Positions 400-9,722 of a stretch of 12,369 bases of DNA are shown here, in pieces. The position numbers were made by a program, and so were the translations under genes. The stretch covers positions 1 to 12,369 of the forward strand of contig JAEOSI010000044.1 of the NCBI GenBank assembly GCA_016840425.1, given 5' to 3'. Each line of letters starts with the position of its first letter. Position 1 is the first letter of the stretch. A model generated the notes under the pieces. The model did not search any database. It was not told the origin of the DNA and worked only from the letters and a program-made list of their open reading frames with translations. Source of the DNA: Candidatus Wukongarchaeum yapensis. Its GTDB lineage: Archaea; Asgardarchaeota; Wukongarchaeia; Wukongarchaeales; Wukongarchaeaceae.

Positions 400-876
400 A
401 TGCAAGAAAAGCCAAAGTATTATAGTTTGTTTTTCGAGGTTTTTGTCCACGCTACTGAAGATTTAGAGAAGGTGAGAGAAGCTCTTCTCTTTATTTTGCC
501 TGAGGAGTACAGGGAAAGAGTTTCTATTAAAAATGAAATATTAGTCGGAAGTTGGGGTAACCAGATCATTGTTCTGAAATTGAAAGTTAAAGGCGAAGAC
601 CTTGTAAAAGAGACACTTTCTCGCATTTTTTCCAGTTTAAGCGCGGTAGAAAGGAAGGATATTCTATCAAGTCTTTTTAAACAAGTGGACGAAAAAGGTT
701 GTTTTTATTTACGTATAAGTAAGCAAAATGCTTGTTTGCAAAGAGTTTCCCTAGATCAGGAGGGAGGAATTATCCGGTGTATTTTTAAATTTAAAACCGG
801 TGTAGGTGAGAAAAAGTCAGAAGCTATAAGGTATTTAAAAGAAATGATTTCAACCATTGAGAATGAAATGTTATAA
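400..876 (+). CDS. DUF54/COG1325-family RNA-binding protein (exosome-superoperon associated)
   Basis: Motifs VFVHATEDLEKV, GSWGNQI and FYLRISKQ match the family HATED / GxxGNxI / YLRxxKQ pattern. It sits in its usual position immediately upstream of rnp3-rnp2. Confidence 0.85.
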   Translation: MQEKPKYYSLFFEVFVHATEDLEKVREALLFILPEEYRERVSIKNEILVGSWGNQIIVLKLKVKGEDLVKETLSRIFSSLSAVERKDILSSLFKQVDEKGCFYLRISKQNACLQRVSLDQEGGIIRCIFKFKTGVGEKKSEAIRYLKEMISTIENEML

Positions 877-929
877 AATAAGGTTTGGTTAAGTTTTTGT
901 GCAAGTAGTTCATGGGGCGGTCTTGTTTT

Positions 930-1649
930 ATGGGGAAGACTTTTATCGATCTTGGGATTTATCCTGGCGGGATGGAAAAGCCAGAAGTTGAAAAAGTTGT
1001 TATGCATGCTCGTAAGTTGGGCTATAGGAAGGTTTGTTTGGTTTTAAAGAGTTTTAAAGGTTTTAATTTTAGAGTGTTTGAGGGGTTAGGGATTGAGGTA
1101 ATACCGCGATTGGAGGTGGGTGGTAGTACTGTTAACGTGGTAAAAAAACAAGTGCTTAAGCGTGGTAATTTATGGCGTTCGGCTGTGTTTTCTGTTTTCG
1201 CGGAGAGTAAAAGGGTGGCTATGTGGGCTGCTCGTAATCGGTGGATTGATATTATTCGTGTGCCTGAATATTCTTTTAACAAGGTTATTGATTGGTCTGT
1301 GGCGAGATTGTTGACGAGTAATAATAAGGCTTTTGAACTTCAAACAGCCCCTATGCTGAGGGTTAGGGGGGTGGTCAGGTCTAAATTGTTGAAAAGTTTT
1401 TATGTTATGGTTAGACGCCTATTAAGAGCGAAAACTCCTGTAGTAGTTAGTAGTGGTGCAAATAGCGTTTTTGAGATGCGAACACCACAGGATACGGTGG
1501 CACTAGCAACGTTGGTAGGGTTACCTTTAGAAGAGGGCTTGAAAGGCGTGTCTATTACCCCTGAGAACATAGTTTTAAAAGTCTTTCAAAGAAAAATGTT
1601 AGCTGGTATTCCTGAAGGCGTAAAAATTGTTCAAAAAGAGGATGTTTAG
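930..1649 (+). CDS. rnp3: Ribonuclease P protein component 3 (Rpp30)
   Basis: MGKTFIDL start, WAARNRWIDII, PVVVSSGANSVFEMRTPQD and C-terminal IPEGVKIV are typical of archaeal Rpp30, and synteny agrees. ATG 930 has GGGGCGG 8 nt upstream; ATG 912 is the alternative start. Stop is TAG. Confidence 0.9.
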   Translation: MGKTFIDLGIYPGGMEKPEVEKVVMHARKLGYRKVCLVLKSFKGFNFRVFEGLGIEVIPRLEVGGSTVNVVKKQVLKRGNLWRSAVFSVFAESKRVAMWAARNRWIDIIRVPEYSFNKVIDWSVARLLTSNNKAFELQTAPMLRVRGVVRSKLLKSFYVMVRRLLRAKTPVVVSSGANSVFEMRTPQDTVALATLVGLPLEEGLKGVSITPENIVLKVFQRKMLAGIPEGVKIVQKEDV

Positions 1650-1673
1650 AGTATAAAAGGGTTTGAGATAGAA

Positions 1674-2039
1674 ATGGTTAAGGTTTTTAGGAACCGTTAC
1701 TTGGTTTTCAAGGTTTACACGGAAAAAGAGCCGGCATTGGATGAAGAAGATATCAAACAAACGCTTTTCAACACAGCAAGAACACTTTTTGGGGAGGCAT
1801 GGATGGCAAAACTTGACCTTCAACTAATAAATTTTAATCCCTCTACCCTTGAAGGCATTCTTAAATGCGGGCACAAAACAGTGACGGAGACCAGGGCAAT
1901 AATCGCCACAATAACTTCCCTTAAAAAAGAACCAGTAAGTCTCTATGTAAAAGGCGTTTCAGGAACATTAAAACGTGCAAGAAAAAAGTTCACAGAGAAA
2001 GAAGCAAGAGAAGACAACAACAGAAAGAAAGAAGCTTAA
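1674..2039 (+). CDS. rnp2: Ribonuclease P protein component 2 (Pop5/Rpp14 family)
   Basis: N-terminal RNRYLVFKV, LFGE, and C-terminal GVSGTLKRARKKF are Pop5 hallmarks; it follows rnp3. Confidence 0.92.
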   Translation: MVKVFRNRYLVFKVYTEKEPALDEEDIKQTLFNTARTLFGEAWMAKLDLQLINFNPSTLEGILKCGHKTVTETRAIIATITSLKKEPVSLYVKGVSGTLKRARKKFTEKEAREDNNRKKEA

Positions 2040-2233: not shown

Positions 2234-2968
2234 TTAAAATGTTACAGCGGGGGGAGTTCTTTCCTCTCTTAAACGTTCTATTTCGAGAAGGATTTCTGTT
2301 GCTTGCTTTGCAAAAGGTTTTAGTTCAAAAGTTTGTGCATACCAGTCTGCAGATAAAACTCTCCTCCACTCTAACCATCTAAGCATCAACCTTGCTTTTT
2401 GAAGGGGAACGTTTAACTTTTGAGATATCTTTTCAAGAGAGTTTGGATTACCCCCTTCCTCTAAAATTACGCGTAAGACAGGAAGCATTCTTCTCAAAAT
2501 GGCAAGAGTTAACACTTTGAGCGCGCGTTCTATACCTTTACCTGTGGTTGCGCTTGTACCTATAATGAAGTAATCTTCTTTGGAGAAACCTGCGAGGCGA
2601 GCTGCTTCCTCTGGCGGTAGAGCTGAAGGGATATCTTGTTTGTTTGCCGCGATTATTATCGGCACGTTAGGTAGTGTGTTTTTTATCTCTGCAAACAAGG
2701 CTTGGGATTCATTTGCATAGGGTTTTGTAGAGTCTATTAGGAATAAAACGCCGTCTGCTCCTGTTGATAAAACCCTCCTCACCATATCGAACCGTTTTAA
2801 GCCAGGGGTCCCGAAAAGGAAAACACTCATGCTAAAAACTTCTGCGACTGCATAATCTAAAGCGACTGTGGTTCCTGCACGGTCTATTGATATACTTGAT
2901 CCTTCACTTACTTTACTTACAAAGGTTGATTTTCCTGAGTTGAAGGGCCCCATTACCAAGATCTTCAA
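2234..2968 (-). CDS. MglA/CvnD (COG2229)-like small GTPase with a C-terminal winged helix-turn-helix domain
   Basis: G1 GPFNSGKS, G2 TTVALDY, G3 FGTPG(L), G4 NKQD, G5 SAT. Residues ~163-220 (VLRVILEE...SLEKISQKLNVPLQKARLMLRWLEWRRVL) have a wHTH pattern. TTG start with AAGGAG 9 nt upstream. Confidence 0.88.
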   Translation of the reverse strand: MKILVMGPFNSGKSTFVSKVSEGSSISIDRAGTTVALDYAVAEVFSMSVFLFGTPGLKRFDMVRRVLSTGADGVLFLIDSTKPYANESQALFAEIKNTLPNVPIIIAANKQDIPSALPPEEAARLAGFSKEDYFIIGTSATTGKGIERALKVLTLAILRRMLPVLRVILEEGGNPNSLEKISQKLNVPLQKARLMLRWLEWRRVLSADWYAQTFELKPFAKQATEILLEIERLREERTPPAVTF

Positions 2969-3020: not shown

Positions 3021-3036
3021 ATTATAAAGTTATCAC
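3021..3036 (-). promoter_or_regulatory. Putative BRE/TATA of the GTPase gene
   Basis: - strand GTGATAAC-TTTATAAT predicts a start near 3000 and a ~30-nt leader containing the SD. Confidence 0.4.
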
Positions 3037-3128
3037 GATTATTATTAATTTTAACGGAAGTTTCGTAAGAATTTTTCTTAAATAAAACTCCTTTCATCTT
3101 AAAAATAAAAAGTTAAAAGAGGGGTTTT

Positions 3129-6654: not shown

Positions 6655-7281
6655 TTGAGGGGGCATGCTTGTAACTATGCTTTAAAGAAAAGCATTCGAA
6701 AAAGTTCCAAGGGTGTAAAAAAGAAAAGTATCTATATATGCAAGCCTGAAGGGGTAGAGTGTGGTGTTAAATCTTTTGATTATGAGGAAATTATACGTTG
6801 TCGGCTTTGGCGGATTGTTAGAGTTTACCAGCGTTTAAAAGCTAATAAAGATAAGGATTTGGAGGATTCCGATTATCTTTTGAAAAACCTTTTAAAAGAG
6901 CAAAGAGGAGTAAGATCTTTTATCAAACGTCTTTTCCAGGCAAATAGCGCCTATTTAGGAAAAAAGAGTCTATGCACTGACCTTCCAAAGTGCTGTGGGC
7001 GCCTCACGAAAGGTCTTCAGCCAACCATGAACTTTTTGTTAAATTATCCATTGCTTTGCTTAGCCTGTGTAAAGTTTTTAAAACCAGTACCCAGAGGCGA
7101 AAGATCAGCGTCATTTGAGAGAAATTATCTAAGAAACACTAATTCAGAATATTATTCTGATTCTGAAAATTGCGTGTTTAAAATCAACAACAAAACTTTT
7201 GATATATTTAGAGGATGCAACTATAAAGCCAGATCTAGAACCGCTTTAGAAATGCTTGTAGAAGCACTAGAAAACGTTTAA
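6655..7281 (+). CDS. Hypothetical basic, Cys-rich protein (208 aa)
   Basis: Long ORF that overlaps no other gene. TTG start behind a strong SD-like AAAGGTGGTGTGAGG, T-tract after the stop, and the same 5' GT / 3' AC compositional gradient as real genes here. No recognisable family. Confidence 0.6.
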   Translation: MRGHACNYALKKSIRKSSKGVKKKSIYICKPEGVECGVKSFDYEEIIRCRLWRIVRVYQRLKANKDKDLEDSDYLLKNLLKEQRGVRSFIKRLFQANSAYLGKKSLCTDLPKCCGRLTKGLQPTMNFLLNYPLLCLACVKFLKPVPRGERSASFERNYLRNTNSEYYSDSENCVFKINNKTFDIFRGCNYKARSRTALEMLVEALENV

Positions 7282-9344: not shown

Positions 9345-9722
9345 TTAGTTTCGAAACAGATTTAGCGATGGCCCTCCCATTCCCATGTAAAAAGCGTCTG
9401 CCCGATTTAATTTTAACCCTATCCGTTCAATAATCCCAATAGATCCTTCCCTTATTTTGTTTTCGTGCATCACGCGAAAAGGCAATCCTATAGTGGTTTC
9501 ATCCAAAATATTTTCATCAACTTCCCCCTCATGGACACACCAAAAGGTTTTTGTCTTCGTCCTCAAAGAGAACGGTCGATCTATAAAATTATCCAAAATA
9601 GATTTCTCTGCAGTAAAAACCACTAGGAATTTCTGCTCTATTATCCTTGAAGACGTTACCTTCGTAGTGAAGCATACGAATGTTTCGTCTTTCTTTACCT
9701 TATATAGTTGAACTCCCATCAT
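9345..9722 (-). CDS. Hypothetical protein (125 aa, beta-rich pattern), probably leaderless
   Basis: Fills the gap with no overlap. TTTAAATA lies 25-32 nt upstream of the ATG and there is no SD. No recognisable family. Confidence 0.6.
   Translation of the reverse strand: MMGVQLYKVKKDETFVCFTTKVTSSRIIEQKFLVVFTAEKSILDNFIDRPFSLRTKTKTFWCVHEGEVDENILDETTIGLPFRVMHENKIREGSIGIIERIGLKLNRADAFYMGMGGPSLNLFRN

Follow-up and report, generated by a model that had tools for sequence, protein, structure and literature searches.

Contig JAEOSI010000044.1 of the Candidatus Wukongarchaeum yapensis assembly GCA_016840425.1 (12,369 nt, or 12.4 kb; C253 in our numbering), here called the window, carries on its minus strand, at positions 2234-2968, a gene for a protein of 244 amino acids (aa) in which a Ras-superfamily G domain is followed by a winged helix and a long C-terminal helix. 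Its G domain, of the type seen in MglA groups 2-5, has a Leu at the position of the catalytic Gln, and the protein is a member of a distinct family within MglA groups 2-5 that is nearly phylum-wide in Asgard archaea and mostly single copy. A member of the protein's 90% cluster, whose source is named as an 'Asgard group archaeon', is annotated only as 'ADP-ribosylation factor-like protein, partial'. All coordinates given below refer to the window unless a locus is named, and all features of the gene and of its upstream region are read on the minus strand.

The extent of the gene was taken from the list of open reading frames (ORFs), the translation and the homologues. The frame runs for 244 codons without a stop, and its TTG start codon at 2968 yields the N-terminus MKILV, which is shared by homologues and forms strand beta1; some database entries of close relatives begin at Met6 instead, a start that would drop this strand. 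A Shine-Dalgarno-like AAGGAG (2978-2983) lies 9 nt upstream of the TTG and is kept in four close relatives. The nucleotide-binding motifs G1, G2, G4 and G5, which the original prediction had described as intact, have invariant or near-invariant positions in an alignment of 102 relatives. These motifs are the G1 P-loop GPFNSGKS (residues 7-14, 2927-2950; G7, G12 and K13 invariant), the G2/switch I segment with T33-T34 and D38 and without an arginine finger (2855-2872; T34 and D38 invariant, T33 in 101 of 102), the G4 motif NKQD of guanine specificity (residues 109-112, 2633-2644; K110 and D112 invariant, N109 and Q111 in 101 of 102) and the G5 motif SAT (residues 139-141, 2546-2554; S139 in 92 and A140 in 96 of 102). 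G3 reads FGTPGL (residues 52-57, 2798-2815), with FGTPG invariant and position 57 occupied by Leu in 101 relatives and by His in one. Leu57, at the catalytic Gln position, is encoded by TTA (2800-2798), two changes from CAA, and opens the stretch of switch II and helix alpha2 (residues 57-72, 2753-2800) in which the clade-specific residues L57, R64, S68 and D72 lie.

Pfam and NCBIfam matches of the whole protein are to small-GTPase families alone, and the class of the G domain (residues 1-160, 2489-2968) was assigned from profiles, Foldseek and a comparison of its sequence profile with solved structures. Foldseek finds Rho, Arf, Rab and MglA about equally (MglA 3t1q at a template modelling (TM) score of 0.76 and 28% identity), and the nearest solved relatives by sequence profile are an Asgard ArfR (5e-19) and MglA (1e-17). 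MglA groups 2-5 were defined by GTPGQ in G3 and by a Thr that replaces the group 1 arginine finger in G2 (PMC4316618; Wuichet and Sogaard-Andersen, 2014). The Wukongarchaeum protein shares with them GTPG without the Asp of DxxG and the Thr-Thr G2 (T33, T34), and departs from them in the residue after GTPG, where Gln is replaced by Leu57, and in lacking a coupled roadblock/MglB gene. TT in G2 and GTPG in G3 assign the G domain to the MglA group 2-5 or COG2229 type, in agreement with its first identification as an MglA-type GTPase. About half of the COG2229/MglA2-5-type proteins examined, Gln- and Leu-type alike, combine a GxxNxGKS P-loop with a GTT G2, which resemble the P-loop Asn and the GTTRD of cation-dependent GTPases.

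The fixed leucine and the tail-bearing clade

The family was collected by a word-indexed search and an exhaustive HMMER search. Each returned about 100-120 relatives, 220-256 aa in length, whose alignments cover 89-97% of the query and extend through the tail. Full-length homologues from Asgard archaea, about 100 in number, match at E-values of 1e-30 to 1e-64, and the named members were recovered in Heimdall-, Hod-, Loki-, Thor-, Freya-, Jord-, Borr-, Sif-, Hel- and Hermod-archaeal bins. The next-best matches are without the tail, being either stand-alone GTPases of ~170 aa or proteins of 370-410 aa with an N-terminal KaiC-like domain. The residue equivalent to position 57 is Gln in 66 of 68 KaiC-fused and in 37 of 47 short tail-less relatives, in line with the earlier view of Gln as the family norm, and because Gln rules in the tail-less relatives, Leu cannot be regarded as a common residue of COG2229 proteins at large. 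The KaiC-fused proteins, which are the closest Gln-bearing relatives, join an N-terminal KaiC-like ATPase domain (PF06745) to the same type of G domain (P0109-P0119, P0129-P0136 and others); they are labelled mostly as Thermoplasmatota and Methanobacteriota in the ESM Atlas and are apparently uncharacterised.

In a tree of 144 G domains, thinned to 70% identity, one clade with a Shimodaira-Hasegawa-like approximate likelihood ratio (SH-aLRT) support of 98 holds all the tail-bearing proteins except the outlier P0201. Among the clade's 24 representatives Leu occurs 19 times, His, Met, Lys and Glu once each and Gln never; over all clade members Leu is found in about 95%, rarely His, Met, Lys or Glu, and again never Gln. 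Two clade members of 152 and 159 aa have no tail and are probably truncated. Aligning the homologues had been proposed as a way to see whether the Leu accompanies the winged-helix fusion, and it does: both mark this single clade. Judged from the alignment and the tree, the Gln-to-Leu change is an old, fixed character of the family, acquired on the branch on which the tail was gained, and this replaces the initial picture of a peculiarity of a single gene.

At 32 distinct related loci, Leu is encoded in 30 (by CTT, CTC, TTA, CTA and TTG), Met in one and His in one, and the use of five codons for the same residue indicates that selection keeps it at the protein level. Together with the conservation in 101 of 102 relatives, these codons rule out a sequencing miscall or a strain-specific mutation as the source of Leu57, as the original prediction had already argued from the two-substitution codon. 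The change is not isolated within the domain. When 118 tail-bearing proteins are compared with 108 Gln-type G domains, eight internal positions are specific to the clade, four of them in switch II and alpha2, and L57, R64, S68 and D72 are each conserved in at least 91% of the former and in at most 19% of the latter. This clustering indicates that the loss of Gln is part of a wider remodelling of the surface that usually binds partners.

A profile of the tail matched 204 of 301 sampled Asgard genomes and 68 of the 90 high-quality ones, almost always as a single match in a frame of 220-260 aa and only in the GTPase-winged-helix architecture; the Wukongarchaeum genome has one match, and several family-level Asgard groups have none, about a third of the 301 genomes being unmatched. 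When homologues consisting of the tail by itself (37-153 aa) were sought, only two short proteins came up, both on small contigs and probably fragments. In a fold search of the ESM Atlas, the only clusters with the full architecture belonged to this family and bore the labels Thor- and Promethearchaeota.

The winged-helix tail and the predicted homodimer

The wHTH-like (winged helix-turn-helix-like) tail that had been proposed from the sequence is supported by structure prediction, in which the last ~85 residues are confidently modelled as a winged helix of the MarR/ArsR/Sso10a kind with a long helix after it. An AlphaFold2 run with the family alignment gave a whole-protein model with a predicted local distance difference test (pLDDT) of 89 and a predicted TM score (pTM) of 0.85, in which the last G-domain helix (146-160) is followed by helices 162-171, 177-185 and 189-201, a hairpin (205-208/213-216) and a helix at 218-237; the tail modelled alone reached a pLDDT of 91.6. 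On the basis of the model and its structural matches, the winged helix is placed at residues 162-216 (2321-2485), with H1 at 162-171, H2 at 177-185, H3 at 189-201 and the wing at 205-216; the putative recognition helix H3 and the invariant Arg202 fall at 2363-2404, and the C-terminal helix (residues 218-237) at 2258-2317. A structural search of the tail against representatives with VIA-align matched MarR proteins, the ArsR-type AntR, Sso10a, AspA and other winged-helix regulators (Z 9-11, root-mean-square deviation 1.9-3.2 Å, 81-85 of 87 residues), and Foldseek ranked AspA and Sso10a first at E about 0.01.

Sequence comparisons agree with this fold, though weakly. The tail profile reaches solved structures of IclR, LrpA, TFE and HlyU at E 0.03-0.3. 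Among the tails of 66 relatives, 13 give a weak match to ArsR HTH_5 (best E 1.7e-5) and nine a weak match to HTH_12, the winged helix of RNase R; weak matches to HTH_24 or IclR profiles also occur among the relatives. A language-model search with the tail pointed to MarR and IclR, again weakly, with no score above 0.77. DUF742 is not among the 25 families listed of the 58 matched by the 66 tails at E up to 1, and the Wukongarchaeum protein's own tail has no match in Pfam or NCBIfam. Of the two checks that had been suggested for this region, structure prediction supports the fold, and the profile search gave no Pfam match for this particular tail.

The conservation pattern of the tail bears on what it may bind. 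R202, D208 and W209 are invariant in the 102 relatives, the positions of W198 and W201 in H3 are aromatic in most of them, R193 is basic in 58% and position 203 is basic in 71%. The basic and aromatic positions taken together would suit DNA binding as well as contact with a protein. The most conserved residues (R202, D208, W209 and the aromatics at 198 and 201) are atypical for DNA reading and could form a protein interface. An alternative to DNA binding is that the winged helix is a protein-binding or in-cis module, acting either as a latch on the remodelled switch II, with Leu57 in hydrophobic contact, or as a recruiter of partners, in a pathway with regulators in trans such as roadblock or tetratricopeptide-repeat (TPR) proteins. 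The conserved aromatics on H3 and wing, the invariant R202/D208 pair and the concentration of the clade-specific changes in switch II and alpha2, where partners usually bind, all favour it. However, the top structural matches are all DNA-binding regulators and cover the whole domain, and the tail has a net positive charge (+4 here, +2.3 on average), and we consider this alternative unlikely.

A homodimer was predicted with GTP bound and with our own alignment, and was scored as the median interaction prediction score from aligned errors (ipSAE) of three runs beside three controls. The score came to 0.50, and that of the best control to 0.01; among proteins of solved structure, the ipSAE mark applied is attained by 20 of 30 homodimers and one of 23 monomers, calibration counts of the tool that are only rough for this score because our own alignment and a ligand were used. 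The contacts agree between the runs by at least 96%, and the pLDDT of the partner is at least 81. In the predicted interface the terminal helix pairs with its own copy (222:222 and 226:226) and packs on alpha5 (148-159) and on the beta2-beta3 turn of the other chain, leaving the switch regions out. The model supports binding through the C-terminal helix, in a predicted arrangement that recalls the terminal-helix dimers of MarR and Sso10a, and this resemblance to DNA binders is a further point against the winged helix being a protein-binding module.

Upstream block and gene neighbourhood

Upstream of the gene, a 53-nt block (3030-3082) is near-invariant in an alignment of four close relatives, whereas its flanks carry indels and substitutions. 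The block contains the palindrome TAAGAAAAATTCTTA (3066-3080), which is broken in one of the four, and runs into a TATA-like TTTATAAT (3021-3028). The four sequences are closely related, and the whole of 3021-3082 is on their evidence a possible promoter or operator.

The original prediction had noted that no roadblock partner lies nearby. This holds for the Wukongarchaeum lineage, in whose genome the Robl_LC7 profile has ten matches, eight of them above Pfam's cut-off, and none on the contig of the window; it does not hold for two other lineages, where the orthologue has a roadblock gene at a distance of 4-7 kb. In most orthologous loci a roadblock gene is not adjacent, the distance of 4-7 kb being seen in families f6, f26 and f12. 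In f6 (L028:1711-7699, L040, L044) and f26 (L035), the orthologue heads a same-strand cluster in which it is followed by a TPR protein of about 290-330 aa, a protein of 1260-1290 aa (1274 aa) with a weak Peptidase_C25 match and a roadblock gene. These clusters, the roadblock gene of f12 and the roadblock genes of the Wukongarchaeum genome, at least eight in number, which could act in trans, again favour a winged helix that binds proteins, whereas the lack of roadblock linkage in most lineages, Wukongarchaeum included, speaks against it.

The same genome also holds a canonical MglA group 1 module (contig C125:9389-11059; locus L002:1450-3120). Its MglA is the nearest paralogue in the genome, a protein of 196 aa with an Arg-Thr G2 and a TVAGQ G3, and is flanked on both sides by Robl_LC7 genes (123 and 156 aa), with a third roadblock gene ~2.3 kb beyond. 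The organism thus keeps a canonical module of a GTPase and its GTPase-activating protein (GAP), from which the fused protein stands apart. Neighbourhood clustering of 23 loci revealed no operon or regulon common to the lineages. A conserved 117-aa neighbour was rejected as an antisense shadow ORF inside the GTPase gene, and the nearest Gln-type relatives, P0137 and P0167, sit on contigs of 1-2.5 kb whose contexts are uninformative.

The GTPase gene adjoins the Pop5-Rpp30-PF01877 genes, which belong to the archaeal exosome/RNase P cluster, and converges with them, both in the window (400-2039) and in two further cases, a 50%-identical relative and the f21 group. This tail-to-tail arrangement is found in at least three divergent lineages (the window, L048 and L034), and in L048 Rrp4, SBDS and L15e also lie nearby. 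The adjacency is probably old synteny rather than co-transcription. Besides the RNase P subunits Rpp30 and Pop5 and the PF01877 RNA-binding protein, the window encodes an isoleucyl-tRNA synthetase (IleRS), a LeuC/LeuD-like pair, an aldo-keto reductase and a HEAT-repeat protein. Two further ORFs, 6655-7281 on the plus strand (208 aa) and 9345-9722 on the minus strand (125 aa), match nothing in Pfam or NCBIfam; the former is common to a genome of the same genus (cluster c77) and may not be a real gene.

RNA- and translation-related neighbours, which across several lineages comprise IleRS, Pop5-Rpp30-PF01877, Rrp4, SBDS, L15e, THUMP, CGI-121 and the threonyl-tRNA synthetase ThrRS, favour a second alternative, namely a HAS-type GTPase (hydrophobic amino acid substituted for the catalytic Gln) associated with RNA or the ribosome, which would hydrolyse GTP without Gln by means of a monovalent cation, RNA or a partner and whose winged helix would bind RNA as in SelB and RNase R. 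HAS-GTPases have a hydrophobic residue in place of Gln, hydrolyse GTP via K+ and water networks and are mostly ribosome or tRNA factors (PMC2848588). In the Wukongarchaeum protein the P-loop Asn (Asn10) stands at the K+ position of MnmE-type enzymes and G2 reads GTT, and the HTH_12 matches of nine of the 66 tails point in the same direction. However, the P-loop Asn occurs in 53% of the Leu clade and in 43% of the KaiC-fused Gln-type relatives; being no commoner in the Leu clade, it lends no specific support to a cation-dependent mechanism, and it was rejected as a mark of a K+-dependent mechanism specific to that clade. In addition, the G domain is Ras/MglA-like and appears to lie outside the Era/MnmE group, the RNase P genes are convergent with the GTPase gene and so are not co-transcribed with it, and about a third of the Asgard genomes, whole family-level groups included, gave no match to the family, which argues against a core role in translation. 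An HAS-type enzyme of this kind is in our view improbable.

Hydrolysis, switching and known systems

The expectation that a Gln-to-Leu change blocks hydrolysis is well founded for MglA, as the original prediction had stated, since Q82A and Q82L abolish both intrinsic and MglB-stimulated hydrolysis (PMC3199381), a loss that supports a hydrolysis-poor, GAP-insensitive protein in the present case. By contrast, kappaB-Ras with its natural Leu65 still hydrolyses GTP, and L65Q changes nothing (PMC12314375), which cautions against equating Leu with a hydrolysis lock. Rap uses a residue that its GAP supplies in trans (PMC2265111). KappaB-Ras exchanges its nucleotide so fast that it is always loaded with GTP, and its partner binding does not depend on the nucleotide (PMC12314375); a third alternative is modelled on it: a constitutively GTP-loaded pseudo-switch, in which the nucleotide would be a structural cofactor and the G domain a scaffold for a winged-helix factor, with no regulatory cycle. 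The Wukongarchaeum locus, which has no linked gene for a GAP or a guanine-nucleotide exchange factor, is in keeping with such a protein. Nevertheless, the gamma-phosphate-sensing Thr of switch I, the Gly of switch II and the base-recognition motifs are invariant across a deep clade, and together with the clade-specific selection on switch II they suggest that a conformational switch still matters, so that a mere scaffold appears very improbable.

The reading that we favour, tentatively and with a likelihood that we place a little short of even, is a dimeric, GAP-independent nucleotide-state switch that signals through its fused winged helix, most likely on DNA. The family would have branched from an MglA group 2-5 ancestor by the replacement of Gln with Leu, the remodelling of switch II and alpha2 (R64, S68, D72) and the addition of the winged helix plus the terminal helix, all on one branch. 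With the guanine pocket and the switch anchors T34 and G56 intact, the protein is expected still to bind GTP and GDP and to change shape between them, and with neither Gln nor arginine finger its hydrolysis should be slow and a roadblock/MglB-type GAP ineffective. In the predicted homodimer, held together by the C-terminal helices, the nucleotide state of the G domains would set the activity of the paired winged helices, most likely DNA binding, and the whole would amount to a GTP-controlled regulator in one polypeptide. The fold and the dimer are model predictions, and we infer the slow hydrolysis, the coupling of the domains and the DNA target. Several observations weigh against this reading, namely the hydrolysis by kappaB-Ras in spite of its Leu and by HAS-GTPases without a Gln, the roadblock genes at 4-7 kb in f6, f26 and f12, the lack of an operon or regulon common to the lineages, the most conserved tail residues, the missing profile match of the protein's own tail and the roughness of the dimer calibration.

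A bolder version would make this Ras-superfamily GTPase a transcription factor, a dimeric one-component regulator across Asgard archaea in which the GTP/GDP occupancy of a hydrolysis-disabled MglA-type domain gates the fused winged helix on DNA; we doubt this version more than we credit it. If it is true, the prokaryotes most closely related to eukaryotes would couple gene expression to their guanine-nucleotide status. Asgard archaea are intensely studied for their expanded small-GTPase repertoire, and surveys of it have focused on Arf-, Rab- and Rag-like groups and treated MglA2-5 as an outgroup. Those surveys list the MglA-like or 'MglA2-5' group and do not describe the GTPase-winged-helix fusion or the fixed Leu, and full-text searches of the literature available found no published description of an Asgard fusion of this kind. 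The significance of the family lies in the evolutionary coupling of three events, the loss of the catalytic Gln, the remodelling of switch II and the gain of a winged helix resembling those of DNA binders. If this coupling is functional, the family would provide the first case of a small GTPase with an effector or DNA-binding output of its own in cis, and a natural experiment in which a 'Q61L'-type switch has been fixed by selection. A length of 244 aa and a confident predicted fold should make in vitro tests easy.

Among known systems, the MglA group 2-5 and CvnD conservon GTPases (COG2229) are alike in their Ras-superfamily G domain, the Gly in place of the Asp that starts G3, the TT G2 without an intrinsic arginine finger and the NKxD G4. 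The bacterial members operate beside helix-turn-helix proteins, such as CvnC and a winged-helix neighbour of group 3, whereas the Asgard protein has its winged helix fused in cis, Leu for Gln and, in the Wukongarchaeum lineage, no adjacent roadblock/MglB gene, and its family was Asgard-only in the searches made. MglA group 1 with MglB (Myxococcus, Thermus) shares the structure of the G domain, and its Q82L mutant is the laboratory equivalent of the natural Leu57, but it has TVPGQ, an Arg finger and a roadblock GAP. KappaB-Ras1/2 (NKIRAS) is likewise a Ras-like GTPase with a natural Leu at the catalytic Gln site, and its switch II is fixed by the hydrophobic packing of that Leu; unlike the Asgard fusion, it is a eukaryotic, single-domain protein and a RalGAP subunit. 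The HAS-GTPases MnmE, YqeH, Era, EngA and FeoB share the hydrophobic residue for Gln, and the Asgard protein has a P-loop Asn and a GTT-type G2 as they do, yet they appear to belong to another GTPase lineage, the best relatives here being Ras, Arf and MglA, and the Asn is not specific to the clade.

For the other half of the protein, the closest likeness is to MarR/ArsR regulators and the archaeal Sso10a and AspA, in which a winged helix of three helices and two strands is likewise followed by a long dimer-forming helix; these proteins carry no NTPase domain, and their sequence similarity to the tail is marginal (E 0.03 and weaker). The control of a winged helix by the nucleotide state of the same polypeptide has precedents in Orc1/Cdc6 and the STAND NB-ARC proteins, which are P-loop NTPases with a C-terminal winged helix (the WHD), and in the GTP-sensing repressor CodY. 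These systems use AAA+ or STAND ATPase folds or GAF folds rather than a Ras-like GTPase, and the comparison is one of arrangement, with no homology implied.

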